Virus record (IMG/VR): IMGVR_UViG_3300044904_000056
Location: 32,001 to 96,000 of that record
DNA: 64,000 nt
Reading direction: 5' to 3' (one strand)
Origin: a virus
In this document: one piece after another, positions 589 through 51,376 of the stretch
How the letters are laid out: every line of letters begins with the position of its first letter
How positions within the stretch are numbered: the first letter of the stretch is position 1
Translations under genes and position numbers: made by a program
Notes under the pieces: generated by a model
Databases searched by the model: none
Seen by the model: the letters and a program-made list of their open reading frames with translations, nothing else
What the model was told of the DNA's origin: nothing

Positions 589-849
589 TTAGACGCTCCC
601 CACATCCGTAGTGTCTGTCTCCATACCAATCTCATAAGGCACTAGTGTTTCGTACACCTTTGTTGTTCGAGCCTTGTTGCAACCCCGACAGCGGTAATGA
701 TGCCGGCTACCAACATACATCTTTTGAGCCGGAGCAAAGCTAGTCGCAGGTTTGATGTAGGACACCCACTCAATCTTTATTTCCACATCATCGTGGTTGA
801 AACAATGCAGCAATCGTTCCCAAAATGTCATCTCTTCCCAAGGTTTCAT
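589..849 (-). CDS. hypothetical protein (possible Zn-binding)
   Basis: ATGA overlap with upstream gene; HC..H and CRGC motifs. Confidence 0.6.
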   Translation of the reverse strand: MKPWEEMTFWERLLHCFNHDDVEIKIEWVSYIKPATSFAPAQKMYVGSRHHYRCRGCNKARTTKVYETLVPYEIGMETDTTDVGSV

Positions 850-1337
850 CCGATTTTCACCGTGCGCGGAAACCTCCGCGTCCTTTCCTCGTCTCTGTCT
901 TTCAGCAGGTACTTCTCGCCCTTGAGAACTTGTTTCATGTTGTCAAGGTGCAATCCGTAAGCTTCCCGTAGGAAACGGAAATCCTCCACATCGTGAGGTA
1001 CTGTTTTTCTGTAGCCCCGGGAGCCTTCCTCGTGGCCGTCTTCGGGGATGTGCACTGCTTCGTGGAGCATCAGGAATACCTTGAAATAGTCCTCCGCAGC
1101 ATCGTACCGCGTTGACCAGACGGATATCACATAGTCATAGTCGGGCAGAAGCAACGACCAGGGTTTGCGGTTCGGATAAATTCTTGCGCCTACCTTGCTA
1201 GACGCGCTGGTATATCCTACCAGAGCTATCCGGCTCGTATGCACGTGCCCGAGGATTGTTGGGAAGAGCTTCTTGGCCCGTTTCAGGTCTGCCCTGTAAT
1301 CGTCTCTCAGCTCCCAGAATTTGCTAGTGCGGCCCAC
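846..1337 (-). CDS. putative phage metallopeptidase, C-terminal RFPR motif
   Basis: LHEAVH (HExxH) and HDVEDF; ends RRFPRTVKIG. Confidence 0.7.
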   Translation of the reverse strand: MGRTSKFWELRDDYRADLKRAKKLFPTILGHVHTSRIALVGYTSASSKVGARIYPNRKPWSLLLPDYDYVISVWSTRYDAAEDYFKVFLMLHEAVHIPEDGHEEGSRGYRKTVPHDVEDFRFLREAYGLHLDNMKQVLKGEKYLLKDRDEERTRRFPRTVKIG

Positions 1338-1505
1338 CTACTTTTCCCTCATCATCTTACAGCAGGGGCATCTCCAGGAAACAAATAGGAAATGCCCTAG
1401 CCTAGCCCACCAAGGCCAGCGGTTCATCTGATCTTCATGCTGAGCCATTGCTAGGGCTTTGGGGAAGACTTCCTTTTTGAATCGCTCCCAATTCTCTTCA
1501 CTCAC
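1338..1505 (-). CDS. small hypothetical protein
   Basis: Likely GTG start at 1505 overlapping the end of the upstream small ORF; C-terminal CPCC. Confidence 0.5.
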   Translation of the reverse strand: MSEENWERFKKEVFPKALAMAQHEDQMNRWPWWARLGHFLFVSWRCPCCKMMREK

Positions 1506-1647
1506 GGGGGAATCTCCTTTGCTTCCAGCTATCATACCGTTTCGCGCATTCCTCATTGCAGAAATTCCGGCGGTACTTAGCACTGTAAATATGTGTCGGT
1601 TTCAAGCAGATGCAGGTCTGCTTGTCTAGCCTCGGGAATCGCCTCAT
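1498..1647 (-). CDS. 49-aa Cys-rich microprotein with RRFPR at both ends
   Basis: Below the ORF-track cut-off. ATG overlaps upstream TGA; translation MRRFPRLDKQTCICLKPTHIYSAKYRRNFCNEECAKRYDSWKQRRFPRE (CxC...FCxxxC, TRASH/MYM-like Zn site). Confidence 0.7.
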   Translation of the reverse strand: MRRFPRLDKQTCICLKPTHIYSAKYRRNFCNEECAKRYDSWKQRRFPRE

Positions 1648-1829
1648 CAAGCTTCTTCTGGCCTAGCAATATCAAGTAGCACCTTCAGGTTCTTGCCAGA
1701 TTGCTTGAGAAGGTCCCACATCTTAGTGCAGACTGAAGCGTGATCAACCTTTTCCGCCGCATACTTCTTTCTAGTTTTTCCTGTACGGCTGAATTGTTTC
1801 CCACACTCACAACGTCCTCCGTATTTCAA
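1647..1829 (-). CDS. small Zn-binding hypothetical protein
   Basis: CECG...HASVC; packed in operon. Confidence 0.55.
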   Translation of the reverse strand: MKYGGRCECGKQFSRTGKTRKKYAAEKVDHASVCTKMWDLLKQSGKNLKVLLDIARPEEA

Positions 1830-1837
1830 TTTTCACC

Positions 1838-2779
1838 TCACTTCGTATCAAGTTCCTCAAATGGTGTAATCCATTGAGCGAAATTCTTCAGTAGTGACTG
1901 GAACGACTTGCTGATGAAGTAGCGCGTAATCTCAGCTTTGTCAATCTTGCCGCGCTGTCGTACAGCCTCAAAGACAACCCGGCGTACCTTTTTCTCTTCT
2001 GGGTGATTATAGGAAGAAACAGAAAGGTCCATAAGCATCAGATTCAAATAGTATCTCTCGCGGACTCCTTTTCCATAGAGCAGCCGGTAGCGGTTGCCCC
2101 GCTTGTAGACTTTCTTCTCCACCTCGGGGGTGAACAGCTCTTCCATATCCTTGTAGGAAGCTAGAAGCTCCCGGATGGTTGTCTCGCCTAGACCTTTAGC
2201 AATTCCTGGAATGTTGTCACTCCCATCTCCTATCGCTGCCCGAAGCTGAAGAAATTGATGCGGGGTGAGTCCCACCTTCTGCCGGAAGTTGCCGTGCGTA
2301 TAGAGTTGCGTCTTTATCGGACTCCATACGCTGGTATTCTCTTGAACCAGTTGGAACATATCCATGTCCGAGGAAACAACAATCCGCTGCCCGTTCAAAG
2401 CTTTCTCCTGGCATATCATAGCTATCAAATCGTCAGCTTCTGTCTGAGGGAAGTACAGCTGCGAAAGATTCAGCTGCCGGAGGACTCGCTGGCACTCCTC
2501 GATTTGAGTGATGGTACTCTGAAATTGTTTTTCCTCTTCCTTCGTAAAGTGCTGATGTCGGTGGGCCTTATATTCAGGGAACTTCTGCTTGCGGTAGGCA
2601 CTATGCCCTGTATCCCAGCAGACAATCCCAACATCCGGCTGAAACTGAGCTAGCATTCCGTGGATAGCATTCAGAGCGCCATAGACAACTTGGACTGGTT
2701 TTCCGTTCGCTGTAAGAATCGGGAGGCGCTTGGCAATGCGCCAACAGAGATTGTGACCGTCAATGATGATGGTTTTCAT
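1838..2779 (-). CDS. 5'-3' exonuclease / flap endonuclease (PolI N-terminal, T4 RNase H-like)
   Basis: IIDGHN, SAYRKQKFPEYKAHR, EADD, SSDMDMFQ, GDGSDNIPGI; start reassigned to ATG 2779 (ATGA overlap). Confidence 0.93.
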   Translation of the reverse strand: MKTIIIDGHNLCWRIAKRLPILTANGKPVQVVYGALNAIHGMLAQFQPDVGIVCWDTGHSAYRKQKFPEYKAHRHQHFTKEEEKQFQSTITQIEECQRVLRQLNLSQLYFPQTEADDLIAMICQEKALNGQRIVVSSDMDMFQLVQENTSVWSPIKTQLYTHGNFRQKVGLTPHQFLQLRAAIGDGSDNIPGIAKGLGETTIRELLASYKDMEELFTPEVEKKVYKRGNRYRLLYGKGVRERYYLNLMLMDLSVSSYNHPEEKKVRRVVFEAVRQRGKIDKAEITRYFISKSFQSLLKNFAQWITPFEELDTK

Positions 2780-3102
2780 ATCAGGTCCATTGTCGCTTGC
2801 CTTCCGTACACTTGTGCCGCTGATAGATACTTCCCATCCTTGTAAGTCATCATTCCCCAAAACCACGAAGCCATATGTTCTGGGCCGCAGCAACAATCTA
2901 TAGTTGCATCTATCATCCAGAGTGCATCGGCTCCAAAGTTCAGACAATTTCTTCCGTAAGCAAGAGAAACTGCACCAAGAGGACTACATGCAACTCCTAC
3001 TGCCTGCTCTAGCCCACATACTTCGCACATCAACTTTTCGCCTCCGGGAAAAGTCTGGTCATGGAGTTCCTTCGCTTTGTGGTAACTAATCAACCCACTC
3101 AT
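2776..3102 (-). CDS. hypothetical protein (CxxC)
   Basis: ATG overlaps RecA stop; CEVCG; resembles common phage hypotheticals. Confidence 0.65.
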   Translation of the reverse strand: MSGLISYHKAKELHDQTFPGGEKLMCEVCGLEQAVGVACSPLGAVSLAYGRNCLNFGADALWMIDATIDCCCGPEHMASWFWGMMTYKDGKYLSAAQVYGRQATMDLI

Positions 3103-4163
3103 TCCCCCTCCAGACAACTCGCCTTACGCAATGCAGAGTCAATCTCCTCCTGATGCCTCGAATAGTATTTGGCGAGACTGCTGCGGGTCACGACATCCTT
3201 CCCGAAACGGTAAGTGGATTTGTTGCGAGTGAAAACTCCCCGGTCAACTGCGTACTCCCAAACTGCTTGAACTTTGTCTATCCCCTTCCCCCAGAGAATC
3301 GGAAACTGACAGCGCGTTTCATTTAGTCCTACCTTGTTTTTCACCACTTGCAATTCAATGAGTGCTCCGATTCTGTCCCCATCTCCGTTCTTGAGGCTTT
3401 TGATCTTCGCCGTTCGGCAGCGTACCCAGGAGTAGAATTTGAGAGCTTTTCCGCCATAGGTAGTCTCTTTGCTGCCCCAGGTCACGCCTATGTTTGTCCG
3501 GGTTTGATTGACACAGATCAGGCAGACTCCGTTTGTCCGTAGGAACTTCACCATACGCCTGAAAAACCTCGATATTTGCAGAGCTGATCTCCCCATATCG
3601 CTCTTATCCAAGCTGGCTTTTTCCTCTATCTCGCTCCTGGTAGGTGTTGACGCTACAGAATCCCAGCCAAATACGATGGGTGTCGTCTTATCCTTCTCCC
3701 GAAGCGTTTTCACTGTCTCACGGATGTAATCATAAATGTCCTCGATGGTCTCGCACTCGTCAAATATCAGGAGGCGCTTTACGTCAATGCCAACCTTCTT
3801 CATCCGCTTGTAGTTGGCAGAGTATTCGGTCGGAAAAAGTCCTGCATAATAGTCAAGATGTTGAGCTTCCGCTATTATGTTCTCCATCACCCCAGTTTTG
3901 AATGATCCTTCTGGCCCAAATATCTCAATGATCCCAGATGGGAACCCAAGGCCATAGCAAACGCAACAATCTACTGAAATGATCCCGCTTGGGACATAGA
4001 CCAGGGGCTGCGAGAAGATAGAGTTCTCCAGAGTGGTAAGAACCCCATCGCTATGTTCCTTTTCAAACTTCTTATTGATAGCCTCTACTGCTGAGAACAA
4101 AGTCTTGTCCTGTACCCCTTTGTACCCAGATGGGCCTCTGTACCTCGGAAATCTTGGTGGCAT
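3099..4163 (-). CDS. recA: RecA/UvsX-like recombinase, N-terminal RFPR motif
   Basis: EIFGPEGSFKT (Walker A variant), WDSVAS, NQTR, GGKALKFYS, VVKNKV; begins MPPRFPR. Confidence 0.92.
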   Translation of the reverse strand: MPPRFPRYRGPSGYKGVQDKTLFSAVEAINKKFEKEHSDGVLTTLENSIFSQPLVYVPSGIISVDCCVCYGLGFPSGIIEIFGPEGSFKTGVMENIIAEAQHLDYYAGLFPTEYSANYKRMKKVGIDVKRLLIFDECETIEDIYDYIRETVKTLREKDKTTPIVFGWDSVASTPTRSEIEEKASLDKSDMGRSALQISRFFRRMVKFLRTNGVCLICVNQTRTNIGVTWGSKETTYGGKALKFYSWVRCRTAKIKSLKNGDGDRIGALIELQVVKNKVGLNETRCQFPILWGKGIDKVQAVWEYAVDRGVFTRNKSTYRFGKDVVTRSSLAKYYSRHQEEIDSALRKASCLEGE

Positions 4164-4164
4164 G

Positions 4165-4353
4165 CTATTCCCCGCCTAGGAACTTGCCTTCAATCTCGTT
4201 CAGTTTTCGGACATCATCCAACGTTGTTGTACCTTCAAGGAGGTGGTCGCATACCTCCTTGAAAGTGTCGAGGTCTGATTCAGTCATCAGAGGAGTAACC
4301 GTCCTGAGAAATGCGACTGTTGAAGAGATTGCTCCACTGAATGACTCAATCAT
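4165..4353 (-). CDS. hypothetical protein
   Basis: RBS-preceded ORF between SSB and RecA. Confidence 0.6.
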   Translation of the reverse strand: MIESFSGAISSTVAFLRTVTPLMTESDLDTFKEVCDHLLEGTTTLDDVRKLNEIEGKFLGGE

Positions 4354-4376
4354 TTTGTTCCCTTCTCCTGTTCGCG

Positions 4377-5330
4377 TTAGTGATGATGATGATGATGTTG
4401 CTTCTTTTTGCGCTCTATCTTACGCTGAAGCTCCTTGTACTGCTTTTCAAGGTCATCCTCATCTGAACTGTCTTCAGAATGGTCGCTGTTATCGGACTTA
4501 TCGCTGCTATCCTCGGATTTGTCAGAAGCATCCGAATCATCGGACGCATCAGACTTATCCGCATCGGAGCTATCATCTGAGTAGTCACTTCCGTCCTCCT
4601 CAGCCGCTATGTGTTTCGCAACCTTCTCCATCTTAGCAACGAAGGTTTCAATCTCTTCGCTGCTGCTCGCACTGACGATTTCATCCAGGTTGGTCAAGGT
4701 CTTGAGGAGCTTATGCCGCTCGTGCTCGTCTGAGGAGATTGGCGTCTCCTTCTCCATAACCTTGAAGTGGTAGTCCGTATCGTCCCGCCCCTTGCCTTCC
4801 CGCTTCACACGGATCAGCCGGCCATATTTCGGATGGGCTACTCCTAGGACTGATTTCCTCCGGTAGTCATCGTCAGAGAAAATTTCTAGCACAAGATTCT
4901 GCCATTTAGCAGAAAGCCGCAGGAGCTTGAATTGCCTATCCTCATACTTCCGGACTTCAATCGTACCATCGCTATGTTTCTTGACCTTGGCTCGGAGGAT
5001 GTTCCAGATACTCTCAGATTTCTGCCGTAGCAGCCCAAATAGAGCCTTAGCAACGGGCGAGCGTTCCTTCTTGACTTCCTCCCAACGGCGGCAGGCTTTG
5101 CACTTCCCTGGCTTGCCTGTCTTCTCGTCAACATCGTTCTTTCCACAGTAGACTTTGTTCTTGAAATCTCCATGGAAGAGAACATCCTTCCAAACTTCGC
5201 CATCCTTCTCCCAAGGAGGCCCAATGCGGAAGTACCATTCTCCTGGGTCAAAGCTCGTCCAGGGGCGGCCACTTGTTTTCTTCTTCCTCTTGGAAAGTTC
5301 CTCACGAATTTCTTCAGCCGTCTTCGTCAC
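4377..5330 (-). CDS. gp32-like single-stranded DNA-binding protein with Ser/Asp-rich tail and terminal His6
   Basis: RIGPP, H..C..CxxC, KREGKGRDDTDY, acidic tail; sits between UvsY-like and RecA genes. Confidence 0.75.
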   Translation of the reverse strand: MTKTAEEIREELSKRKKKTSGRPWTSFDPGEWYFRIGPPWEKDGEVWKDVLFHGDFKNKVYCGKNDVDEKTGKPGKCKACRRWEEVKKERSPVAKALFGLLRQKSESIWNILRAKVKKHSDGTIEVRKYEDRQFKLLRLSAKWQNLVLEIFSDDDYRRKSVLGVAHPKYGRLIRVKREGKGRDDTDYHFKVMEKETPISSDEHERHKLLKTLTNLDEIVSASSSEEIETFVAKMEKVAKHIAAEEDGSDYSDDSSDADKSDASDDSDASDKSEDSSDKSDNSDHSEDSSDEDDLEKQYKELQRKIERKKKQHHHHHH

Positions 5331-5341
5331 TATTGCCTCCC

Positions 5342-5797
5342 TTAGTAATCACCTTTTTCCTTGCGCTGGTTAGCATTCAACGATTGGAGCATAGACAACC
5401 GTTGTGTAAACGCGCGCTCAGCAAACTTTAACAGCCTTTCCGAGTCCTGCCACTTCCGGAGTTTCCGGTGAAGCCTCTGATATTTTGAATTGCGGACAAC
5501 GTAGTAGCGGATGTCTGTTACCCGCGTCCCTTTCTTCCCCTCACGAAGCATATTGGCATAGCGGATGAAGAGGTCAGCTTGCAGCTTCTCCATCACCTCT
5601 TCTAGCTTCGCTACCTTTCCTGATACTCTAGCCAACAATCCTGTCCATCTACCATATTTATCTGCTGCCACCTCCATCTCGTGGTCTAGATTGTCAAGGT
5701 GAATTTTCAACTCCGCATTGAGATCCTGACTCTTTATCCCGTGCACGAGAATTACCGGGGGGTCAGACTCCGAATTTTGCTTCTCTTTCCGCGACAA
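5342..5797 (-). CDS. UvsY-like recombination mediator
   Basis: Helical 151 aa with LxID..NLD.E and AFxQRxxMLQSL patterns; synteny with SSB and RecA. Confidence 0.6.
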   Translation of the reverse strand: MSRKEKQNSESDPPVILVHGIKSQDLNAELKIHLDNLDHEMEVAADKYGRWTGLLARVSGKVAKLEEVMEKLQADLFIRYANMLREGKKGTRVTDIRYYVVRNSKYQRLHRKLRKWQDSERLLKFAERAFTQRLSMLQSLNANQRKEKGDY

Positions 5798-5966
5798 GGA
5801 TGTGCTCCTTCATAATCTCAAAGCCGATGTCTTGCAAAGAAAGTTCTACATCAGGAACATCAAGTAGTGCGATTTGGTTCCGTTTCCCTTCAATGCGAAT
5901 AGCTTCTCCCATCACAAGCCTGCGAAACTGATCTCCTGATAAACTGATTCGAATAACTTCACCCAT
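5763..5966 (-). CDS. hypothetical protein
   Basis: RBS plus upstream GCGTTCTAT element. Confidence 0.6.
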   Translation of the reverse strand: MGEVIRISLSGDQFRRLVMGEAIRIEGKRNQIALLDVPDVELSLQDIGFEIMKEHILVAEREAKFGV

Positions 5967-5983
5967 ATCCGCTCCTGTTCTAA

Positions 5984-5992
5984 ATAGAACGC
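5984..5992 (-). promoter_or_regulatory. GCGTTCTAT phage promoter-like element
   Basis: Exact 9-mer, intergenic, ~18 nt upstream of start; recurs at 4 other gene starts. Confidence 0.65.
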
Positions 5993-5997
5993 CTGTC

Positions 5998-8664
5998 TCA
6001 TGTAAACTGGCTAGGGATTACAAATTGTCCCTTTTCGGAACCATGCTCTAGCTCCGTCATTGTTCCAAGATTAGGCCCTAAGAAACAATCAGTATCCAGC
6101 GGCACTTCGCAATACCATCCTGTCTTTTCCTCAATCCACTTCCGGTCGGTCATAAAGAGATGGTGCTGGTAAATTACGTCTTGGGCTTCCTTGTGATAGA
6201 TATCTATGTAGCCCGCATCGTGGACCGTGATAATGTATTTCGACTTCATCCTGTACTTGCGAAGCCAGTCCGCCATCCGCCATCCTGCGCACCACGTCAC
6301 ATCTGAAGCATCCCCTTGTATCGGTGCGTTGATTCCCTGCCGAACTGCTTCCGCCCTCTGGGCTTCGTTCTCACTATCAACTTCAGGAAGCCTTCTTGGC
6401 CTAAAGAAATGGGAGAAGACAATCTTGTGTTTCTTGATGTAGTTCTCACGCTCTAGACGGTAGGCTAGACAATCGTCATACTTGCCAAAATACCTATTGA
6501 TGAATTTCTCTGCCCAACGCTTTGATTTCTGAAAGTCTGCCGCAAGGGCTTCTGGCCCCCGTCCGTAAAGCACCCCAAAGGATACCATCGACTTAGAATC
6601 AGTCCGCTTCTGCTTCTGCTCCTCTTTCGGGAGAGCGTTCCACTGTTCCTCTGTAAGCTCAAATCCCGCCATCGCTCCCATCTTGTGCGGGTCCTTACCA
6701 GACAGAAACTCCTCCAACATCACATCGTCTTTTGCCCGGTCACAGAACAAGCGCATTTCGATTTGCCTGGAATCCTGTTCCATGATGAAGTACCCATCAC
6801 CATGGGAACAGAACTGAGTTCGCAACTCCATCGCCAGCTTGTTGCGCTTGGGAAAGTTTTCGTGATTCGGGTCCTCACTCGACACCCGGCCTGTTACCTG
6901 ACCGTCCACCCGGTAGGTCGTATGCGTCTTCCCATCTGTACCTCGCCATCGGGGCAGAGGGTCTATGTACTTAGATTTCGCTGAGACTAGCTCGCTGCGG
7001 TCAATGATAATCGTCAGAGGCCTACTCTTCCGCTTTTTGTTGAGGCGTTCTAGGACTTCCCGTTCAACTGATTCCTGTTTCCCTGAAGGAGTCTTCCAAA
7101 GAGGCTCATAGTCTAGGATATCAAAGACCAACTTGCGTTTCTCATCTGGGGAGTTCAGGTTGATGAGTTCACGGTTGGACTCGAACAGCTCAAAGACTTT
7201 CTTCTTAGGATTTGGGATTGGCCTCTTGTAGCTATTGACCCGCTCGATGAGTTCCTTGAGGAGTTCCTTGTCCTTCCATTTCTGAAGAGCCTTGATTTCA
7301 GACAGGTTGACTAGCTTTTCGTCGTGCTCTGCAATTCTCCTCTCATAGACCTTCTCTAGCTCCTTGTTACGCTCCTTGTCAATCCTGACCCCGTTGATCT
7401 CCTGTGTAGCGGCAGTCCAATTGTGATACATAATCGGAAACTTGAAAGGACGTTCCCAGAGATGTTGCCTCTTCAGCTTTTTCCGGAGATGGAAGAACAG
7501 CCTCCGGGTTGCGATGCAGTCCTTAATGTTGTAGTCATACAGGATATCAGCCGGGACAAGGTTCAGATTCCCACCACTCTCGGGATTTGCCTCAGGATGC
7601 TCAATGCAATACTGCTGCTTAGGCCGGTCATAGTCCATCATCCCTATGAATGCAGCCAGCTCTTTCAGGCCCTTCCCACCCCTTCGTTCGTTCAGGCAGT
7701 AGGCCATCAGCTCTGTATCAGCGTAATAGCCGTGACCTTTCCTTCCGCCTAGCCAGATGTCGTGCAGCACAGCGGTGTAGACAAAATCGTATTTGCCGTA
7801 ATGGAGCAACCACTTCAGGTCTTCGTCTTCCCAAAGCTCTCGGGTAGCCTCTAGGCATTCCTCAGGATGGACCTTGATACCGTCTATCTGAACGCGGCTA
7901 TAGACCGGCAGGACGGCTCCTACGTTGTCCCCCCAGGAGTAGCCTATGCAGCCGATTTGAGGCTTGCGAAACCGGGCGAACGGTGAGAGTGTACTGCCTT
8001 CAATATCGGTTGAAGGATACTCGGCTTTCTTGACGATGTCTACAACTTCCTGGAGAGTCCGCTTGTCCTTGACTACAATCTGTTCAAATTTCTCCCTGCT
8101 GATAGCGTGTTTCGGCGGATAGGCAATCCGCTTCGCTGTCTTCAGCACCTCTAGGAACTGCTTGTAGTTAGCCTCTGTTTTGTTGCGCAGGTACCACGCT
8201 GGGTGGAAGGATATGACATACTGCCAAGGCCCTCCGTTCACGACGTTCCCGTGAAGCTTTAGGACTCCAGTTTTGTTGAGAACACTGCGGAGAGGAGAGG
8301 CTCCAAGGAGGATGACTACTTTCGGACGGAGCGAATGTATTTCACGAAGCAGATGGGGCCGACAGTGATTAATAGCGTAGGCTGGTAGTTTGTTCCCTGG
8401 CGGACGGCACCTAGCCGCATTGGTGAAGCGGCATTTCTTCGGGTCAATCCCAACTTCCTCGATAGCTTCCCGGAGAACAAGGCCTGCTTCTCCACACCAA
8501 GGGTAGCCATTCTCATCCTCGTGCTCACCAGGCGCTTCCCCGACAAACAGGAATACCGGCTCCTCACTGCCCTCCCCATTCATCTGTGGGGATTTGCAGC
8601 CCTTATAGAGCTGGCAAGGCTTGCAAAATCTATCAGGTTGTCGGAGAACGTTGAGACTAAGCAT
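5998..8664 (-). CDS. polA: family A DNA polymerase with N-terminal family-4 uracil-DNA-glycosylase-like domain and 3'-5' exonuclease
   Basis: CKPC..GEAPG..CRPPGN..HP (UDG4 with Fe-S Cys); DIEG exo; TGRVSS; DSRQIEMR (motif A); KSMVSFGVLYG (motif B); TVHD (motif C). Confidence 0.95.
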   Translation of the reverse strand: MLSLNVLRQPDRFCKPCQLYKGCKSPQMNGEGSEEPVFLFVGEAPGEHEDENGYPWCGEAGLVLREAIEEVGIDPKKCRFTNAARCRPPGNKLPAYAINHCRPHLLREIHSLRPKVVILLGASPLRSVLNKTGVLKLHGNVVNGGPWQYVISFHPAWYLRNKTEANYKQFLEVLKTAKRIAYPPKHAISREKFEQIVVKDKRTLQEVVDIVKKAEYPSTDIEGSTLSPFARFRKPQIGCIGYSWGDNVGAVLPVYSRVQIDGIKVHPEECLEATRELWEDEDLKWLLHYGKYDFVYTAVLHDIWLGGRKGHGYYADTELMAYCLNERRGGKGLKELAAFIGMMDYDRPKQQYCIEHPEANPESGGNLNLVPADILYDYNIKDCIATRRLFFHLRKKLKRQHLWERPFKFPIMYHNWTAATQEINGVRIDKERNKELEKVYERRIAEHDEKLVNLSEIKALQKWKDKELLKELIERVNSYKRPIPNPKKKVFELFESNRELINLNSPDEKRKLVFDILDYEPLWKTPSGKQESVEREVLERLNKKRKSRPLTIIIDRSELVSAKSKYIDPLPRWRGTDGKTHTTYRVDGQVTGRVSSEDPNHENFPKRNKLAMELRTQFCSHGDGYFIMEQDSRQIEMRLFCDRAKDDVMLEEFLSGKDPHKMGAMAGFELTEEQWNALPKEEQKQKRTDSKSMVSFGVLYGRGPEALAADFQKSKRWAEKFINRYFGKYDDCLAYRLERENYIKKHKIVFSHFFRPRRLPEVDSENEAQRAEAVRQGINAPIQGDASDVTWCAGWRMADWLRKYRMKSKYIITVHDAGYIDIYHKEAQDVIYQHHLFMTDRKWIEEKTGWYCEVPLDTDCFLGPNLGTMTELEHGSEKGQFVIPSQFT

Positions 8665-8957
8665 TATTTTGACTTAGACTTTGTTCGCTTAACTTCCTGC
8701 AAGCCTAGATGGAACCCGATGCAGGTCAACAGCTTGAAAAGTTCAACTTGAGCCTTCGCAGCCTCTTTCTCGTTCTCAGAACCTGCTTCTGTTATTAGAA
8801 AGTCCGTAGCCATCATACCAATCTTCGGGTTGAGGCCGACTTTCCTGAAAACAGAATCCCAGTCCTTTGGCCACCGCTTGTCCTTCCTTGCTGCCTTCAG
8901 CAGGACATCGCAGCGATTCCAGAATTGTTTCTGCTTGTACTCTTCAAAACGGCTCAT
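8664..8957 (-). CDS. hypothetical protein
   Basis: Overlapping start/stop with neighbours. Confidence 0.65.
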   Translation of the reverse strand: MSRFEEYKQKQFWNRCDVLLKAARKDKRWPKDWDSVFRKVGLNPKIGMMATDFLITEAGSENEKEAAKAQVELFKLLTCIGFHLGLQEVKRTKSKSK

Positions 8958-9343
8958 TGCGCTTTCTCCTTCAACTCCTTGATACGGTCCATCGCGTCTT
9001 CTAGCTCAACTACGGTTGTATAGCAGAGCATAAGACAGACAACCTCCTTTTCCGCAGCAGCCAAACCATTCTGGACACTAAATATCTCTAGCTGCTGTGC
9101 CCAGCGATATTTGGGAAGAGGGAGAACTCCATCCCGGATAGACTCGATAAGCTTCTGAAGATAGTGCATTGCTTTATCGAGGTCCTGTAGTCCGTTTTTC
9201 TTACGCCAACGCGTCACATATTTCGTGACCTGCCCCTCGAAATATCCTAGATGGTTATGGGCTGCTAAGTCCCAGTGCTGAAATTTCGCCTGGTAGTGCT
9301 CTCCGCCCACCTGGTAGTCATTCGCCTTCTTGTCAGATTCCAA
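8954..9343 (-). CDS. DUF3310 / SaV-like protein
   Basis: QVGGEHY...GQVTKYVTRWRKKNGLQDLDKAMHYL; start TTG 9343 after GGAGG. Confidence 0.8.
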   Translation of the reverse strand: MESDKKANDYQVGGEHYQAKFQHWDLAAHNHLGYFEGQVTKYVTRWRKKNGLQDLDKAMHYLQKLIESIRDGVLPLPKYRWAQQLEIFSVQNGLAAAEKEVVCLMLCYTTVVELEDAMDRIKELKEKAQ

Positions 9344-9707
9344 TTTGTGCCTCCTTGGGAATGTCCTCCAAACGCGCCAGACCAACATCCCAGTGGTCCG
9401 CGTGATTCTCTTTAGCCAGACGTTCTGCTTCATTCCGAGCAGGCGTATGACTGGTAGCCTTGATAAATTTCGTATCCCAATCCCTGCGACCGTTGAAGTA
9501 GAGCTTGACTTCATACCAGTCTTCCTGAACAACAATCGGCAGGATAATCCGGTGCTCTGCCGGCTTCGTCATCACCTTCGGAAAGAAGTACCTCTTGCGA
9601 AACTCGTGAGGCTTAGGATGGAATCGCGTTGTCCGCTTCTCTGGGGCTTTCCTGGCCCGGACCTTCTTTGTCTTCCGTGTTGGTCCTGCCTTTTTCTTTT
9701 GCGTCAT
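9333..9707 (-). CDS. basic hypothetical protein
   Basis: RBS-preceded; overlaps the 3' end of the TS-like gene. Confidence 0.5.
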   Translation of the reverse strand: MTQKKKAGPTRKTKKVRARKAPEKRTTRFHPKPHEFRKRYFFPKVMTKPAEHRIILPIVVQEDWYEVKLYFNGRRDWDTKFIKATSHTPARNEAERLAKENHADHWDVGLARLEDIPKEAQIGI

Positions 9708-10800
9708 CGAGTAGCCTCACACAGGTGGAGTAGACTTCTTTCGATATTCCATACGTGCACTGCTCGTAATAGTTCAAAGCCAATTCCATAAACGGGGAGG
9801 GAAGGTGCAGAATTTCACTAGCGACCCACTCCGCCCTATACTGCCAACCTGGCTCTTTCACCCAGCGGAAAATAGTAAGCATTTGGGGAATGGTTTTTAT
9901 CCAGTACCCATCTGGAGGGGGAGGCCATGTCGGATTTGGAAGCTCTCTTGGTTTGTCCGTCTTGAAAGCCCTAATCTTCTCTACTTTGAGGAGGACGTGT
10001 TGAAACTCTTCGTCAGTAACTGTAGAGAATCCTGGTACGCATTCGGCCTTAACACTTGCTTGATTCATCACCTCTGATTCATCAAAGGCTCTTTCGAGGA
10101 TATTCCCTAGAGTCGGCTTGTAGAGTTCTTCATAATAGTGGAGATTTTGAATAATGTACGTCAGCTTCCCTATCTTCGCCCCCAGACAACCCGCTATATA
10201 GGCATGAATATGGGAGAACTGAACCGCGTTGTACGGCGCTCCCCAAATGAGGTCGCAACTCCGCTGCACTACAGTCTGGTCTAGAATCCCGTTTCTCAGC
10301 CGTAGATATATGACATTGTTGCACGGGTAGTCATTTGACTTCAGAAGATTGTCCCGCTCCGGGTCCCAAAGGCTGATAACTGCTTGTCTTGATAGAGGCT
10401 CCCGCTTTAGCTTGTCGATGGCAATGCTAATTTGGTCTACAGTTAGATATCCTCCAATTGCTGAAGGCCAGCGTCTCATCCGCAGCCCGTAGGCCCCATT
10501 GAAATCCTGCTGATTACCATCCGCAAACTTCCTCATGTTCTTGTTAAAGTAACATATCCACTCGACATTCCCGCTGCCTGAGAGAATCCAGATTACTTCA
10601 GCAAGGGCGAAGAATGGATTGAAGTTGCGTCCAGGAATCACCATCCAGCAATATCCTGGCAGCTCATAGTTCAAACAGACAGGTTCTTCTAGCTCTAAGC
10701 AAGGACCATGGCGGGTGGGAATCTCCTTCCCATGATTTGCTATTTCGCGGACCAGAGCGAAGTAGAAGTCGCCAAGACCACGGCCTGAATAAGTTTTCAC
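9613..10800 (-). CDS. thymidylate synthase-family enzyme, probable dUMP hydroxymethylase
   Basis: NPFFALAE, GAYGLR, SRQAVISLWDP, YPC (catalytic Cys), QRSCDLIWGAPYN (Asn indicates dUMP specificity), NLHYY; adjacent to hmU-modifying genes. Confidence 0.85.
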   Translation of the reverse strand: MKTYSGRGLGDFYFALVREIANHGKEIPTRHGPCLELEEPVCLNYELPGYCWMVIPGRNFNPFFALAEVIWILSGSGNVEWICYFNKNMRKFADGNQQDFNGAYGLRMRRWPSAIGGYLTVDQISIAIDKLKREPLSRQAVISLWDPERDNLLKSNDYPCNNVIYLRLRNGILDQTVVQRSCDLIWGAPYNAVQFSHIHAYIAGCLGAKIGKLTYIIQNLHYYEELYKPTLGNILERAFDESEVMNQASVKAECVPGFSTVTDEEFQHVLLKVEKIRAFKTDKPRELPNPTWPPPPDGYWIKTIPQMLTIFRWVKEPGWQYRAEWVASEILHLPSPFMELALNYYEQCTYGISKEVYSTCVRLLDDAKEKGRTNTEDKEGPGQESPREADNAIPS

Positions 10801-10816
10801 AATCGTTCCTCCTCAC

Positions 10817-11686
10817 CTAGATAGAACGCTCCCCTCTAGGAAAACGTAAGTTGCCTTGGAACCCGTTGTAGAGAGAGCGAGGCCTGCCTTCTCCCAGACG
10901 TACCCGCTCATACTTGTCCCACTCACAAAGTGCATTCTGCAAATCCTGCGCATGTATGTCCGGCATTCCTGCTTGAAAAATTTTCGGGCTGATTTTGTCG
11001 TAGAGTTCGTCTAGGCATTCCTTCCAATCCGCTTCCTTCCACTTAGCCCTCTTATCCCGCCCTATTACACGATTCAACCCTCGTTTGCTCCCAGGGCCAG
11101 AGATAGCCCAAGTTGACCAATCCTTTGCGTGCCGAAGCGTAGCATACTTCACATCAGCAATGACCTGCCCTGTCATAAAGCTTCCCATATCTTTCTGGTC
11201 GTGCAGCCTGTCGTAGAATTCCGCAAGCGTATCGCCATCTCTCGGGCGGATTTCTTTTCTTGCTCCCCACATCGGTGTCAGGACTTGCTTGGCTAGGTAT
11301 CGGGCTTTCGATTGATGATCTGGACCTGCGTGAATCATATATGCTCCGGTGAAGACTTTCTCGCCGTCTTTCTTTCGCTGCTCCAATACTCTGATGAACT
11401 CGTCTGGGTGCCAAGGAACAGGATAACCTAGCTCATCTAGGGTCTCCGGCCAATTGACAAAACGTGAAACCGTCATAGCGAACCAGAGGTCCTTATCTTC
11501 CGCGTGAGGCTCCCGCCAATGCTCCCGTACCCAAATCGTGACCGTGTCTAATTCCCGGAACACGTTGCAGAACCGATAGCGCTGAAGTATTGGGTCCCGT
11601 GTCCATGGTCGAGGCTTGCCAGCTTGCTTCCGCTTGTAGATTGCGTGGCGTTCAAGGATGAAGCGAAGGAGAGGATTGATGTTCAT
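10817..11686 (-). CDS. aGPT-Pplase1 / 5-hmdU DNA kinase helical-domain family (thymidine hypermodification), C-terminal RFPR
   Basis: ERHAIY..K..GKPRPWTRDPILQRYRFCNVFRELD, FTGAY, GPGSKRGLNR, QNALCEWDKY. Confidence 0.85.
   Translation of the reverse strand: MNINPLLRFILERHAIYKRKQAGKPRPWTRDPILQRYRFCNVFRELDTVTIWVREHWREPHAEDKDLWFAMTVSRFVNWPETLDELGYPVPWHPDEFIRVLEQRKKDGEKVFTGAYMIHAGPDHQSKARYLAKQVLTPMWGARKEIRPRDGDTLAEFYDRLHDQKDMGSFMTGQVIADVKYATLRHAKDWSTWAISGPGSKRGLNRVIGRDKRAKWKEADWKECLDELYDKISPKIFQAGMPDIHAQDLQNALCEWDKYERVRLGEGRPRSLYNGFQGNLRFPRGERSI
10821..10829 (-). promoter_or_regulatory. GCGTTCTAT phage promoter-like element
   Basis: Exact 9-mer 21 nt upstream of TS-like start, followed by GAGGAGG RBS. 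Confidence 0.65.
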
Positions 11687-12039
11687 CAGTTGCCTCTCCT
11701 TTGATTTTGATACAGACGTAGCCGTTCAGCCATATTCATCAGCTCGTTCGCCAGCTCTTCATCGCGGTAGGTGTAGTAACACTGAGTGTTGGACTTCTCT
11801 GCCATAGCTTCAAGATTGCTGATGATTTCGTCCAGGTCAACTCGGGGGCCACGGTGCTTCTTGCCGGCTTTCTTCTTATCTCGGCAGGATTTGCAGCGTT
11901 TTGGCATTTGGAATTCGGGATTTGTTGCCTGAAGACTTTTGTAGAAGCTTATCTCGCTCTCGTACATCCCCCAGTCCTCGTGGCAGTCTACGCATTGCCC
12001 CATCGAAACAAATGCTCCTCGATCTTTATCATCCCCCAT
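11686..12039 (-). CDS. zinc-ribbon (zf-trcl-like) protein
   Basis: CVDC..SE..FY..PKRCKSCR. Confidence 0.7.
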   Translation of the reverse strand: MGDDKDRGAFVSMGQCVDCHEDWGMYESEISFYKSLQATNPEFQMPKRCKSCRDKKKAGKKHRGPRVDLDEIISNLEAMAEKSNTQCYYTYRDEELANELMNMAERLRLYQNQRRGN

Positions 12040-12398
12040 TTTCTCTTCCTTTCCGCTTTCTCCACTCTACCCAACGTCTCTTCGTAGCTTTACCAATTTT
12101 TAGAAGAGCCTGCTTAGTATGCTTGTATCCTTTGCTATTTTGATTCCCAAATCCGAAATGTTTGCCCGCAGCATTTTTATTCCCTAATTTGGAGAGGCTC
12201 ATCTTTTTACGGCTCATAGGAGAAAGTTTTCGCCCTAAACAGTATTGATTTCCTGTATGAAGTTTGATTAGTCTGCGGCGGTGTTCTGCAGACAATTTCT
12301 TTCCCTTCCTGTTATGATTCCCCGCCCCAATCTTATTACCCATCAATCTTATTACCCATCATCCTTCTTCTCATCTTCTTTCGAGTAGTCGCAGACAT
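12029..12398 (-). pseudogene. NUMOD3-repeat protein (homing endonuclease remnant) frameshifted by a 16-bp tandem duplication
   Basis: ATG 12398 reads MSATTRKKMRRRMMGNKI then stops because AATCTTATTACCCATC is duplicated (12329-12344, 12345-12360); removing one copy restores the frame into the 105-aa NUMOD3 ORF; no nuclease domain. Confidence 0.65.
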
Positions 12399-12399
12399 T

Positions 12400-13463: not shown

Positions 13464-13610
13464 TGTGCTTTCGACTCCCTTCTAGGCCCGACTGGTTTTA
13501 GGCCAGCCTATTGTTGGTAGCGGACCCAACTAGCCAGTGGCAGGGTGCTAGCAGAGTTCGTTTACGTGGGGATATAGCTAAACTGGTGTAAAGGCTAGTT
13601 TTGAGCCCTG

Positions 13611-17043: not shown

Positions 17044-17062
17044 CTTGTTTCTCCTCTACAAC

Positions 17063-17105: not shown

Positions 17106-17125
17106 AGCACTTTACCAGGACTGTA

Positions 17126-49032: not shown

Positions 49033-49038
49033 CTAAAT

Positions 49039-49752
49039 TTACTTTTCCAGGAGGCTGATAACTTTGTCAGCAACGACCTTCGGATTGTGCTTTACGTCCC
49101 GTTCCTTGAAGTGGACAACCCGGTAGCCGAGCTTTCGGAGATCACGGTCTCTTTTACGGTCTCTAGCTTTGTTTCGATGCCAATAGGAACCATCTACTTC
49201 AATTAGCAACTTAGATTTTGGGATCAAAAAATCAGGAAAATATGGCCCAACCCAAACTTGAAATCTGTACTTGATTTTGAGCCCTTTCAGAATCTCTATC
49301 ATTCGCTGTTCGAGGCCATTCGGATGTTTTGATACACTAGAAAATACCTTTGGAAGAAACTTCCTTCTTGCAGCTATCATCTTTTCACTACGTTTCAATC
49401 CTCTGCTTATTGCTCGCCCCCAAGCTTTTGAATGTTTTCTTCCCTTACGGGTCTTACTCATCTTCTCTTTTGTTTCTTGGGTACAGACCTGGCCCATATG
49501 CGCCAGGCTAAGATTTTCACAATGTTTTTTAGAAAGCTTCTTGCCTTTATTCCACGCTTTAATTTTTCCTTGTCTCTTAAGCTTGCGAAATGTAGCTCTC
49601 AACTTCTTTGTCATTTTTGCAATTTTAGGGTCAGTTTCAGCAGTTTTTCCTTTGTTCCAGGGAGGGAAATCGTTACCATTCTCCCTTCGAACAGCCCAAC
49701 CCTTGATAGCATACAAACTTCTCTGATCCGAAGACCAATCTTCAAAAGACAT
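49039..49752 (-). CDS. NUMOD3 + DUF559/Vsr-like endonuclease
   Basis: PWNKGK, ETKEKMS repeats; YFPDF..IEVDGSYWH..DRKRD..GYRVVHF. Confidence 0.85.
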   Translation of the reverse strand: MSFEDWSSDQRSLYAIKGWAVRRENGNDFPPWNKGKTAETDPKIAKMTKKLRATFRKLKRQGKIKAWNKGKKLSKKHCENLSLAHMGQVCTQETKEKMSKTRKGRKHSKAWGRAISRGLKRSEKMIAARRKFLPKVFSSVSKHPNGLEQRMIEILKGLKIKYRFQVWVGPYFPDFLIPKSKLLIEVDGSYWHRNKARDRKRDRDLRKLGYRVVHFKERDVKHNPKVVADKVISLLEK

Positions 49753-49755
49753 ATC

Positions 49756-50907
49756 TTAGCTCAGGATTTCCATAATTTTTGAAGCAACTACTCGGGGGCT
49801 CAACTGTTCTAAACAAGGAGAAAATTTCGACCCGTTTATAGATTTGCATTGGCAAGTATCTATAAAACATGCGCTTGTGCAGCACTCCTTGCCGTCTGGT
49901 AGAAGCCCTTTCACTGATTCAACCCGGAGTCCGTGAGCGCTGGGAAAGTGCCACAAAAACGGCTGCGGCTCATGGGGGCCATACGTAACCACACAGGGTT
50001 TCCCTCTTGCTGCACGAGGGTACAGAAGCCCCGTGTCTGAACTGCAGTGCAAATCAGCTTCGATGATGACGGCTGCTGAATGGCGTATCCTGAAGACTCC
50101 CGAACAATCTTCAACATTCGCACCCCGCCAAGGCTCTCTCCGGTTTGAATCAAGGATAAGCCATAGGTAGTTTTTCGGGCATAGGCGGATGACTTCCTTC
50201 CAATGTGGGTAGTTTTTGTATGGAGTGCTCGCATACGGGAGCAGGGTAATAACCTTACGCCCTTTGTCCTTGAGGGGCTTGAGGAACTTCCGCGCTGTTT
50301 CCATCTCGTGCTCAAACGGATAGTAATAAATCGTGTTCTTTTCAGGAGGTGGGTCAATGAACGCGTGCATGCAGTACATATCCAGCGCAATCATCCGGTA
50401 GCGGGAAATGACAGAGGTAGAAGCCTGATTCACAAAGTCCAGCTCGTCTGTAGTCAGGGATTTCGGGTCCTTCGCTAGAAGGCTGACAAGAAATTCGTTG
50501 AGATGGGGCTTCGTGCGAAGGTGGATTTTGTAGTTGTACCCCCCCTTCAAGGGGACATCGTAGTCGAGCCAGCACCAGTCTTCCTTGAAGGTGTCACCGA
50601 TTTCTTCCATACTGCTATACTCCATATAGTGATAGACCTTTTCGATATCAGGATTATTCTCTAGGATTTCAGGGCAAGTGCAAATGTAATGAATCTTACA
50701 AGTAGGGAATTTCTTCTTAATTTCATGTACGGCTGCTGTTGAATACAGGATGTCCCCAATTCCCCACGTGTGCTTGATAACAAGTCGCCTTCCGGACAGA
50801 TTAGTTTCCCTACGAAGAGGTTCCCTCCTGCGCAATCGCTCTTGATATTCCTCCCAGGAAAATTCCTTCACGCGCTGCCCATATTCATTAATCAGAATGC
50901 GTGGCAT
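49756..50907 (-). CDS. GT9-like glycosyltransferase
   Basis: GIGDIL, LENNPDI, KNYPHW, SSDTG..GKPCVVTYGP, C-terminal Cys cluster. Confidence 0.85.
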   Translation of the reverse strand: MPRILINEYGQRVKEFSWEEYQERLRRREPLRRETNLSGRRLVIKHTWGIGDILYSTAAVHEIKKKFPTCKIHYICTCPEILENNPDIEKVYHYMEYSSMEEIGDTFKEDWCWLDYDVPLKGGYNYKIHLRTKPHLNEFLVSLLAKDPKSLTTDELDFVNQASTSVISRYRMIALDMYCMHAFIDPPPEKNTIYYYPFEHEMETARKFLKPLKDKGRKVITLLPYASTPYKNYPHWKEVIRLCPKNYLWLILDSNRREPWRGANVEDCSGVFRIRHSAAVIIEADLHCSSDTGLLYPRAARGKPCVVTYGPHEPQPFLWHFPSAHGLRVESVKGLLPDGKECCTSACFIDTCQCKSINGSKFSPCLEQLSPRVVASKIMEILS

Positions 50908-51376
50908 GTATAGTAGTCCTTCCTTTCTTCACATTTTTCCAACGAATTGATTGTGCTTTTCTCATCTTGCAGCGTGCTGTCTTGGTGTGTTTATGGCCTA
51001 GGAAATTCTGGTTGCCTTTCATTCCTTCGCTTAACCTGCGCCGATGATCCTCGGTGAATTTGTACCCGAGACAATTATGGTTACCTTTCAGGGCCCTACT
51101 CTTGGCTTCGCTGTTTGTCAGCCTTCTCGGGAACCTAGCAATTCTAGGAATCCCTAGATAGTGAATAGCCCTTTGCAACAATTCAAGACTATCACAAAAG
51201 GAACCAAGCCCCATATTACATCTGATACAAAGAACTCCTCTAAATGCTCCTGTTCTATGGTTATGGTCTAGCTGAGGCCGGTCTGGGGGCTTATCCCCAC
51301 AGACAGCACAGCAGCCTTCTTGAAGTTTTAGAAAATCCTTTTTCAACTCTTGGTTTTGATTAGAGTTGTATGCCAT
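50888..51376 (-). CDS. endonuclease VII-type homing endonuclease + NUMOD3, with RFPR
   Basis: QEGCCAVC..LDHNHRTG..RGVLCIRCNMGLG. Confidence 0.88.
   Translation of the reverse strand: MAYNSNQNQELKKDFLKLQEGCCAVCGDKPPDRPQLDHNHRTGAFRGVLCIRCNMGLGSFCDSLELLQRAIHYLGIPRIARFPRRLTNSEAKSRALKGNHNCLGYKFTEDHRRRLSEGMKGNQNFLGHKHTKTARCKMRKAQSIRWKNVKKGRTTIHATHSD

Follow-up and report, generated by a model that had tools for sequence, protein, structure and literature searches.

RFPR, a selected peptide motif shared by DNA-acting proteins of uncultured peat and soil phages

Uncultured phages of peat and soil, with genomes of ~100 kb, form a clade in which a defined set of proteins bears the tetrapeptide RFPR. 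Here we report that RFPR is a genuine short linear motif, strongly selected at the peptide level, and that it is conserved across the clade and modular, being gained and lost among orthologous proteins. We tentatively propose, as a reading that falls somewhat short of probable, that RFPR is a portable motif through which its carriers dock on a single common partner, a DNA-associated protein that is probably polyanionic. A literature search yielded nothing on an RFPR tag.

Abundance, coding and placement of RFPR

The window analysed here is a 64-kb stretch of a 104,040-bp phage genome (G000). A six-frame scan of the window reproduced the 15 exact copies in 13 ORFs listed in the original prediction, all on the minus (coding) strand; the plus strand holds two further copies, inside 40- and 69-aa frames, which is the chance level. 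The whole genome contains 19 copies on the coding strand, of which 16 are in frame with the calls of our simple gene caller and the remaining three belong to two genuine ORFs that it overlooked, encoding a microprotein and the product of an overlapping ORF (18992-19345). In the called proteome, RFPR was observed 16 times versus 0.27-0.29 expected (Poisson P ~1e-22), in keeping with the earlier estimate of well under one chance copy. With 15 carrier proteins, it is also the 4-mer of widest distribution, and a comparison with shuffled proteomes, proposed along with the original prediction, bore out the enrichment: in 300 within-protein shuffles, none of the 4-mers spread to more than 9 proteins, and the mean for RFPR was 0.3. 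Throughout the called proteome, the tripeptide RFP is always followed by R.

The corresponding degenerate DNA pattern, MGNTTYCCNMG, has 18 matches, 15 of them on the coding strand, versus 5.0 ± 2.2 in dinucleotide shuffles (0 of 100 shuffles reached 18). Among the RFPR copies, Arg is encoded by each of its six codons and every Pro and Phe codon is likewise in use, confirming the codon diversity noticed at the outset; the nucleotides that vary among copies are those at synonymous positions, and the flanking DNA lacks conservation. Because the codons vary synonymously, the flanks are unconserved and the copies are in frame, the peptide rather than the DNA is under selection, as had been claimed.

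Consensus and placement were derived from 64 copies pooled from G000 and ten relatives. The pooled copies define a wider consensus of about seven residues, [I/V/P]-x-R-F-P-R-[L or other hydrophobic], in which 46 of the 64 copies have I, V or P at −2 and the commonest residue at +1 is L; peptides seated in a protein groove typically have such hydrophobic anchors. RYPR is the sole tolerated variant (9 versus 0.9 expected), Lys is not accepted for Arg (KFPR never occurs and RFPK once), and RGPR is at background (2 versus 1.9 expected). The variants RYPR, WFPR, LFPR and RFPG do adjoin some exact copies, as first described. The distance to the nearest terminus has a median of 8 residues, with 51 of the 64 copies within 30 residues and 13 farther inside; tags occur at both N- and C-ends and in linkers of cytoplasmic enzymes, and tandem arrays have a period of 6-7 residues. 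The claim that the motif sits on tails and linkers outside the folds holds up, in that the copies lie outside Pfam domain boundaries and the one modelled tail is disordered (pLDDT <35). The residues around the tags carry a net positive charge (+2.0 per 16 residues versus +0.6 in control termini; P 6e-7), which fits a polyanionic partner, and 31% of tags have neutral or acidic flanks, for example those of the SAP-domain protein N-end, FtsK and some RecA and portal copies.

Tagged and untagged proteins

All tagged ORFs in the window lie on the minus strand. The PF18894 metallopeptidase (846-1337) carries the tag (864-875) five residues from its C-end; its orthologs keep the tail RFPR-T-V-K-I-G/A, and residues 148-163 are disordered in an AF2 model (pLDDT 27-34). 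A 49-aa zf-FCS-like zinc microprotein (1498-1650) has RFPR at both ends (1630-1641 and 1504-1515), and its orthologs in four relatives (L014, L016, L019 and L021) bear one to four tags each. In RecA (3099-4163), the tag comprises residues 4-7 (4143-4154), ahead of the RecA core. The HMUDK_hel protein (10817-11686), named for the 5-hmdU DNA kinase helical domain, which ends at residue 265, is tagged near its C-end at residues 281-284 (10835-10846), and the P-loop 5-hmdU DNA kinase (12400-13023) at residues 4-7 (13003-13014), a tag that is doubled in its G001 ortholog. A PIG-L-like deacetylase (13611-14258) bears the motif three residues from its C-end (13623-13634). Among these phages, G000 encodes sugar-type tailoring enzymes and G001 an amino-acid:DNA transferase and a radical-SAM enzyme; the tag is identical in both.

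Homing endonucleases of two families, which are mobile, have gained the tag. In the HNH-AP2 enzyme (14799-15308), it follows the AP2 domain (residues 102-151) at residues 161-164 (14817-14828), and two of three family members are tagged. In the Endonuclease_7/NUMOD3 enzyme (50888-51376), it occupies the linker (51125-51136) between Endonuclease_7 (8-74) and NUMOD3 (104-139); two paralogs that lie beyond the window are tagged in the same position, and a G002 homolog has two C-end copies instead.

The FtsK/SpoIIIE-like ATPase (22234-23676) is tagged at residues 86-89 (23410-23421), directly preceding the FtsK_alpha domain, which starts at residue 96. A 224-aa protein without family assignment (29475-30149) has the motif at residues 9-12 (30114-30125), and three of three orthologs are tagged; the 170-aa SAP-domain protein (32221-32733) combines an N-end copy (32704-32715) with a C-end pair, RFPR (32275-32286) and WFPR (32257-32268). 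A 211-aa zinc-finger-like protein with a basic tail (18984-19619) contains RYPR (19416-19427) and RFPR (19398-19409) in a linker, and four of its five orthologs are tagged. The 3′ half of this gene is overprinted in another frame by a 117-aa ORF (18992-19345), whose product ends in LFPR, RFPG and RFPR, the exact copy lying at 19013-19024. Conservation of this product extends to G001 (56% identity, E 1e-24), G002 (E 3e-9) and G006 (E 0.003); the G001 and G002 homologs end in RFPR arrays, and the G006 alignment stops at a single RFPR.

Just outside the window, the portal protein and the small terminase are also tagged. The portal C-tail bears the motif in five of six genomes, 2 to 133 residues before the stop, and the small terminase (TerS-like) in four of four family members, ahead of its HTH. 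The motif was originally thought to be confined to non-structural proteins, which these two carriers contradict; the related statement that capsid and tail genes lack it stands within the window but does not extend to the portal and small terminase beyond it. Capsid and tail proteins themselves have no RFPR, and it is likewise missing from the core replisome, namely PolA (5998-8664, together with its clade orthologs), primase, the DnaB-like helicase, the 5′-3′ exonuclease and SSB. The carriers are low-copy enzymes and the low-copy portal, the abundant capsid and tail proteins being untagged. Of the carriers whose function can be recognised, all bind or act on DNA apart from the metallopeptidase. 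Head proteins have a recurrent word of their own, RLRE[A/S], which fits a prohead protease.

Conservation and modularity among relatives

In eleven related IMG/VR contigs (RecA 45-71% identical), the same protein families are tagged, and the tag is conserved while its surroundings diverge. The 64 pooled copies compare with 1.13 expected; RFPR is strongly enriched in every contig of the clade and is the most widely shared 4-mer in G000, G001 and G002. The tag is present in 12 of 12 clade RecAs and missing from ~147 other listed RecA representatives, all ≤38% identical, the pattern of tailed close homologs and tailless distant ones for which the original prediction had suggested looking. Besides RecA, the FtsK-like (6/6) and TerS-like (4/4) proteins are always tagged in the clade, whereas the orthologs of the peptidase (6/9), the HMUDK_hel protein (4/8) and the kinase (2/4) are tagged only in part. 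In a sister lineage, a related but different motif, R-x-P-V-R, stands at the homologous RecA N-end, and it recurs on the SbcC C-end and the N-end of the TerL ORF (4 versus 0.56 expected in G007; 4 versus 0.18 expected in L023). The sister-lineage motif hints at a lineage-specific code.

Possible readers and alternative explanations

We infer that RFPR binds something, that its partner is a protein and which protein this may be. According to the docking proposal, the lineage would attach RFPR, as single or tandem copies, to the disordered ends and linkers of proteins working on finished double-stranded phage DNA, comprising the recombinase, the FtsK-like translocase, thymidine-hypermodification enzymes, homing endonucleases, SAP/zinc DNA-binding proteins, the small terminase and the portal tail. 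One common partner, most likely a polyanionic DNA-associated protein platform, would read the tag and thereby concentrate the tagged proteins at one place, and small proteins made of little beyond two to four tags could serve as cross-linkers or competitors. Comparative genomics of the clade brought out no conserved reader. Furthermore, the C-tail of a portal normally points towards the inside of the capsid and its DNA, so a cytoplasmic protein hub is a non-obvious partner for the portal copy, and tandem copies 6-7 residues apart are spaced more tightly than separate pockets on a globular hub would usually require.

The first candidate reader is the acidic tail or core of the gp32-like SSB (4377-5330, minus strand). 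Its AF2 model (pLDDT 78) matches the T4 gp32 core (1gpc) in Foldseek (E 1.7e-8, prob 1.0), its gene adjoins those of RecA and a UvsY-like mediator, and the protein is universal in the clade, with an acidic tail of 60-200 residues in all 11 orthologs. The proposed link is one of analogy: T4 gp32 and T7 gp2.5 recruit partners via acidic tails, and the chemistry of the RFPR tags, basic-aromatic and set in basic tails, is complementary to such tails. However, in the known hubs (T4 gp32 A-domain, T7 gp2.5 C-tail and E. coli SSB-Ct), the SSB bears the conserved peptide and its clients engage through folded basic pockets, whereas here the peptide is on the putative clients. That PolA, helicase and primase, the classical SSB-tail clients, are untagged also counts against this link.

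The clamp-binding peptides (β-clamp QL[SD]LF, T4/RB69 gp45-binding tails and the PIP box), which are read by one hub, resemble RFPR in being short, modular and easily gained motifs that occur at either end or in linkers of a wide range of unrelated DNA enzymes. The RFPR consensus is nevertheless unrelated to Q-L-x-L-F or Q-x-x-L-x-x-F-F, and the archetypal clamp client, DNA polymerase, is untagged here, whereas terminase and portal are tagged. Searches with PF02916 and PF00712 had no match in G000 at E ≤0.1, and thus no phage-encoded sliding clamp of gp45 or β type was found, although a host clamp could be available. In its simple form, the earlier idea of an address for a replication compartment or clamp is disfavoured by the untagged core replisome.

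The foremost alternative, which we regard as unlikely but well worth weighing, is that RFPR is a minimal DNA-binding hook with no protein reader, its Arg residues lying in the minor groove or on phosphates, Pro kinking the chain and Phe wedging or stacking, so as to add DNA affinity to any carrier. DNA alone could explain the carrier set without a receptor, because the recognisable carriers, the metallopeptidase excepted, all bind or act on DNA; tags adjoin DNA-binding modules (the TerS HTH, Endonuclease_7/NUMOD3, AP2 and SAP), and the portal tag lies in a C-tail that, in textbook portals, faces packaged DNA. The net basic flanks and the absence of an emerging reader point the same way. RFPR also shares with the AT-hook (RGRP), the Hin GRPR arm and SPKK repeats an Arg-Pro unit of four to five residues, often in tandem (here with the 6-7-residue period), that is auxiliary on diverse DNA-binding proteins and in which Lys cannot replace Arg, as with minor-groove readers. 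Yet its core has a bulky Phe where hooks carry Gly or Arg and lacks the essential Gly of the AT-hook, and the hydrophobic preferences at −2 and +1 and the non-basic flanks of about a third of the copies are unlike known groove-binding hooks. Moreover, a hook could not read the final modified base, as the tailoring enzymes differ between G000 and G001 and the tag does not, and a universal ligand leaves the different motif of the sister lineage unexplained.

Improbable, in our judgement, is a turnover or processing signal, either a degron or adaptor site for a host AAA+ protease or a site cleaved by a protease such as the tagged PF18894 zincin or one of trypsin-like type that cuts after F-P-R; either would restrict the level or the persistence of the tagged proteins. 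The closeness of tags to termini, the low copy number of the carriers and the conservation of the small tagged metallopeptidase beside the tag-rich microprotein are consistent with such a role. By contrast, linker copies (FtsK, EndoVII and the 211-aa protein) and tandem arrays are unexpected of a degron; ssrA-like/ClpX degrons sit at the extreme terminus, which most RFPR copies approach (median 8 residues) but the 13 lying more than 30 residues inside do not, and the tagged portal is a stable virion part. Clipping 3-7 terminal residues would have no obvious purpose, and the peptidase's own tail is disordered in the AF2 model rather than docked in the active site. A capsid-targeting or prohead-protease site was rejected, as RFPR occupies both ends and linkers of cytoplasmic enzymes and RLRE[A/S] already matches a prohead protease in the head proteins; the T4 CTS, an N-terminal-only leader on internal head proteins with a protease site at its end, is unlike RFPR.

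A nascent-chain effect appears very improbable. RFPR would slow or arrest the ribosome like the RAPP or RAGP arrest motifs and, from its place close to the beginnings and ends of genes, would adjust initiation or the coupling of translation in tight operons, as the conserved peptide with its variable codons, the strong bias to the first or last few codons and the dense single-strand gene array might suggest. However, portal copies scattered over such a range from the stop, internal-linker copies and tandem arrays do not fit, a purely translational device does not predict a coherent DNA-related carrier set, and we know of no arrest motif of this sequence. Chance, or a promoter, operator or repeat element translating as RFPR, is effectively refuted despite the many copies near gene boundaries, because conservation is restricted to codon-constrained positions with all Arg, Pro and Phe codons in use, the flanks are unconserved, every copy on the coding strand shares the reading frame of a real ORF, shuffles never approach the observed count, and the peptide recurs in relatives as diverged in RecA as those above.

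The docking proposal has a bolder form, to which we give a slightly lower probability than to the DNA hook: RFPR may be a virus-private address code with a dedicated reader, drifting between lineages and directing proteins to a DNA maturation and packaging factory. The reader would perhaps be the SSB acidic tail, acting as a condensate scaffold; the factory would gather recombinase, DNA-hypermodification enzymes, homing nucleases, small terminase and portal, and the multi-tag microproteins would tune it. If so, the factory of each lineage would admit only its own proteins, those of the sister group being addressed by R-x-P-V-R.

Recurrence of RFPR in the genome and its clade

The sequence analysed comprises bases 32001–96000 of a 104,040-bp virus record held as a single contig, and nearly all genes in the window lie on the minus strand. 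A six-frame scan of the window recovered 15 coding-strand copies of the tetrapeptide RFPR (hereafter, the tag), at the same places and in the same 13 ORFs as in the original prediction; the whole genome holds 19, and the plus strand of the window has two stray copies, in frames of 40 and 69 amino acids. In the proteome obtained by simple gene calling (~140–150 ORFs and ~32,000 residues), RFPR occurs 16 times versus 0.27–0.29 expected (Poisson P ~1e-22), and the tripeptide RFP always continues with R. Only one 4-mer, part of a Ser/Asp low-complexity repeat, shows a greater Poisson excess, and RFPR has the widest spread of any 4-mer: 15 proteins share it, whereas across 300 within-protein shuffles the widest spread of any word was at most 9 proteins, with a mean of 0.3 for RFPR. 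The degenerate DNA pattern of RFPR has 18 matches, compared with 5.0 ± 2.2 after dinucleotide shuffling. This genome is likely to be nearly complete; in the related contig G003, the counterparts of genes lying at its opposite ends are joined via ~12 kb of large, variable genes, and an identical single-stranded DNA-binding protein (SSB) is also encoded on a contig of 207.6 kb, roughly double 104 kb.

Called genes contain 16 of the 19 copies in frame, and the remaining three lie in two real but uncalled ORFs. The ORF of a tagged 49-aa microprotein is real and was missed by simple gene calling. A further tagged ORF (18992–19345, minus strand) is overprinted in another frame of the 3′ half of the gene at 18984–19619 (minus strand). 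This ORF is genuine, since its product is recovered by tblastn in three relatives, G001 (56% identity, E 1e-24), G002 (E 3e-9) and G006 (E 0.003), and RFPR arrays terminate the product in G001 and G002. The two-frame overlap spans ~350 nt, with both products kept in relatives, and contigs from several peat metagenomes and metatranscriptomes match positions 846–20400 without indels, so the overlap is not an assembly error; occurrence of such contigs in RNA libraries is not proof of transcription.

RecA-based scans of IMG/VR gathered 11 related contigs, with RecA proteins 45–71% identical, and RFPR is enriched in all of them (for example, 12 copies versus 0.17 expected in G001, 15 versus 0.24 in G002 and 9 versus 0.18 in G003). 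Pooling the genome with ten of the eleven relatives gave 64 copies versus 1.13 expected, and the core marks about one-tenth of genes across the clade. In this pool, RYPR is the sole tolerated core variant (9 versus 0.9 expected), and arginine is not replaced by lysine, with KFPR absent and RFPK found once. At position −2, 46 of the 64 copies have I, V or P, and the commonest +1 residue is L, defining an extended unit [IVP]-x-R-F-P-R-[L]. Copies lie a median of 8 residues from the nearer terminus; RFPR forms the very end of some proteins, and tandem copies follow one another at intervals of 6–7 residues. Variation in the 12 bases of the motif is confined to positions that the genetic code leaves free, all six kinds of arginine codon are used, and the 36 bases on each side are not conserved, in agreement with the earlier proposal that selection acts on the peptide and not on the DNA.

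The tag thus occurs in same-clade relatives, and distant homologs lack it: a search of 1.84 billion representatives returned three clade RecAs, the next best match having ≤38% identity, and RFPR is absent from the other 147 RecA matches listed. RecA residues up to 10 fall outside every tblastn alignment to cultured-phage RecAs, and, as the alignments begin after residue 10, the tag precedes the RecA core. The clade is isolated. The search for cultured relatives or a host yielded nothing usable: megablast and tblastn against INPHARED gave a best RecA match of only 34% identity, Tunturiibacter phage Tunturi_3 differs in gene layout, and a GTDB genome scan with an SSB profile gave no match. A sister lineage (contigs G007 and L023; RecA 28% identical) shows no excess of RFPR. 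There, R-x-P-V-R occurs at the N-end of RecA, in a position homologous to that of RFPR, at the C-end of SbcC and, as tandem copies, at the N-end of the large terminase (TerL) ORF (4 versus 0.56 expected in G007 and 4 versus 0.18 in L023), which hints, tentatively, at a variant particular to that lineage. A second scan for sister-lineage relatives found nothing beyond these two contigs.

A second recurrent word, RLRE[A/S], has 14 copies in 12 proteins versus 0.8 expected; its copies cluster towards the N-ends of head-module proteins and are kept in the G002 orthologs. Its sites include positions 28 and 39 of the major capsid protein (61590–62684) and, in L051, a stretch with its own coordinates, a 740-aa protease fusion (5248–7470) and the genes at 9400–10677 and 8582–9289. 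The word looks like a prohead-protease cleavage site, L-x-E followed by A or S, as for T4 gp21.

Tagged and untagged proteins

Carriers were identified by Pfam and PHROG searches, and tagged fractions were derived from ortholog grouping. Always or nearly always tagged are RecA (N-end, 12/12), an FtsK-like ATPase (linker, 6/6), a small-terminase-like HTH protein (N-end, 4/4), the portal (C-tail, 5/6), an unknown protein of 224 aa (3/3), a zinc protein of 211 aa (4/5), and zinc or helical microproteins with two to four tags each. The tag is present in 6/9 PF18894 metallopeptidases, 4/8 HMUDK_hel proteins and 2/4 P-loop hmU kinases, and sometimes in the PIG-L deacetylase, the homing endonucleases HNH-AP2 and EndoVII-NUMOD3, a SAP protein (both ends) and, in relatives, a radical-SAM enzyme and a GT-like protein; the amino-acid:DNA transferase of relatives carries RYPR. 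The tags fall beyond Pfam domain limits, and the only tail modelled, that of the metallopeptidase, is disordered (AF2 pLDDT 27–34), consistent with the predicted placement on tails or linkers outside the folds.

Among the ortholog groups, the tag was never found on PolA, which is fused to a UDG-family domain, primase, the DnaB-like helicase, the 5′–3′ exonuclease, the gp32-like SSB, the UvsY-like mediator, SbcCD, the sigma-like protein, the SNF2-type helicase, the thymidylate-synthase-like enzyme, methyltransferases, the HU-like protein, both TerL ORFs, capsid, protease or tail proteins. The rule that only non-structural proteins are tagged therefore fails on the portal and the small-terminase-like protein, and a simple replisome address fails on the untagged PolA, primase, DnaB-like helicase and SSB. 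The carriers are better described as handlers of finished duplex phage DNA, acting in modification, recombination, cutting, translocation and packaging.

Several of these genes have further features. The portal gene, just outside the window (L031:821–4606, minus strand; genome 18821–22606), contains an intein with an HNH endonuclease; the protein has 1261 aa here versus 883 aa in G002, which has no intein, and the G001 and G003 portals (1320–1332 aa) may hold more than one insertion. In all clade members two ORFs make up the large terminase, one for the ATPase (401 aa; L031:7283–8488, minus strand; genome 25283–26488) and one for the nuclease (222 aa; L031:5521–6189, minus strand; genome 23521–24189), separated by zero to two other genes, depending on the genome. 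The family-A DNA polymerase (5998–8664, minus strand) has its UDG-superfamily domain at the N-terminus, and a separate gene (21840–22232, minus strand) encodes a further, small UDG-like protein; UDG domains are unusual for a phage replacing thymidine through a 5-hmdU pathway. The thymidine-hypermodification clusters (8954–17043 here) share a kinase and HMUDK_hel core, and their tailoring enzymes vary among clade members: GT, PIG-L, methyltransferase and LMW phosphatase types in this genome, and an amino-acid:DNA transferase with a radical-SAM enzyme in G001 and G006.

Candidate partners and readings of the tag

The acidic tails of T4 gp32 and T7 gp2.5 recruit partners, and by analogy the first candidate for a partner recognizing the tag (a reader) would be the 317-aa protein adjoining RecA (4377–5330, minus strand), which is a gp32-fold SSB (AF2 pLDDT 78; Foldseek match 1gpc, E 1.7e-8). 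Its N-end is basic and LAST-like and its acidic tail spans 60–200 residues; the protein is universal in the clade, without a tag, and missing from the sister lineage. Tag-bearing tails are net basic on average (+2.0 versus +0.6 per 16 residues, P 6e-7), with neutral or acidic flanks in 31% of tags. Co-folding of the SSB (28-row alignment) with a two-tag microprotein scored 0.00, which counts neither for nor against binding. The SSB tail is very long and rich in Ser/Asp/Glu, with a conserved short helix, D-L-E-x-x-Y-K-x-M-K-K-K, and His6 is its natural C-terminus in this genome.

No clamp gene was found in the genome. Untagged, clade-specific and near-universal proteins comprise the SSB, the UvsY-like mediator, the 5′–3′ exonuclease, the thymidylate-synthase-like enzyme, the sigma-like protein, the TerL nuclease ORF and a few unknowns, a list too long for comparative genomics to name the reader. 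Self-docking of the metallopeptidase tail was rejected, as the AF2 model leaves it disordered; Foldseek gave only weak minimal-zincin matches for this protein, such as an HtpX domain and selecase. A conserved 392-aa protein had no usable match in the ESM Atlas.

We tentatively favour a reading in which RFPR docks its carriers on a protein platform that they share and that is probably polyanionic. A protein reader is suggested by the hydrophobic anchors that flank a strict core, the tolerance of acidic flanks, the seemingly distinct code of the sister lineage and the bivalent microproteins. Direct anchoring of the carriers to DNA is a less likely but serious rival: the carriers are almost entirely DNA-related, DNA-binding modules adjoin tags, the chemistry is Arg-only, tandem spacing is tight and the portal copy sits in the C-tail, the part that faces DNA in known portals. 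The tag is identical in this genome, with its sugar-type tailoring, and in G001, with its amino-acid transferase and radical-SAM enzyme, so the modified base in its finished form cannot be what the tag reads. The terminal bias of the tags could also be accounted for by a turnover or processing signal (a degron or protease site), which we consider improbable, or by a nascent-chain effect on translation, which is more improbable still; both fail to account for tags in linkers or in arrays, for tagging of the stable portal and for the coherence of the carrier set. Chance or a DNA-level signal can be dismissed with near certainty.

Biological meaning of a proposed phage docking tag

Full-text literature searches on RFPR with phage, phage docking tags of the short-linear-motif type and PF18894 returned nothing relevant and no description of the motif. 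In kind, RFPR would be a short linear docking motif, a known principle, in a form that is undescribed, genome-wide and phage-private. Hub-wiring short linear motifs are central to eukaryotic cell biology, and to our knowledge only a few phage cases exist, among them the tails of clamp-binding proteins and of SSBs. RFPR connects the packaging machine with selfish nucleases, recombination and DNA hypermodification, and even mobile genes acquire it. Identifying its reader would explain how hypermodification enzymes locate their polymer substrate and reveal the spatial organization of DNA maturation in a non-jumbo phage; it would also yield a portable tag of very small size with which cargo could be brought to phage DNA or factories.
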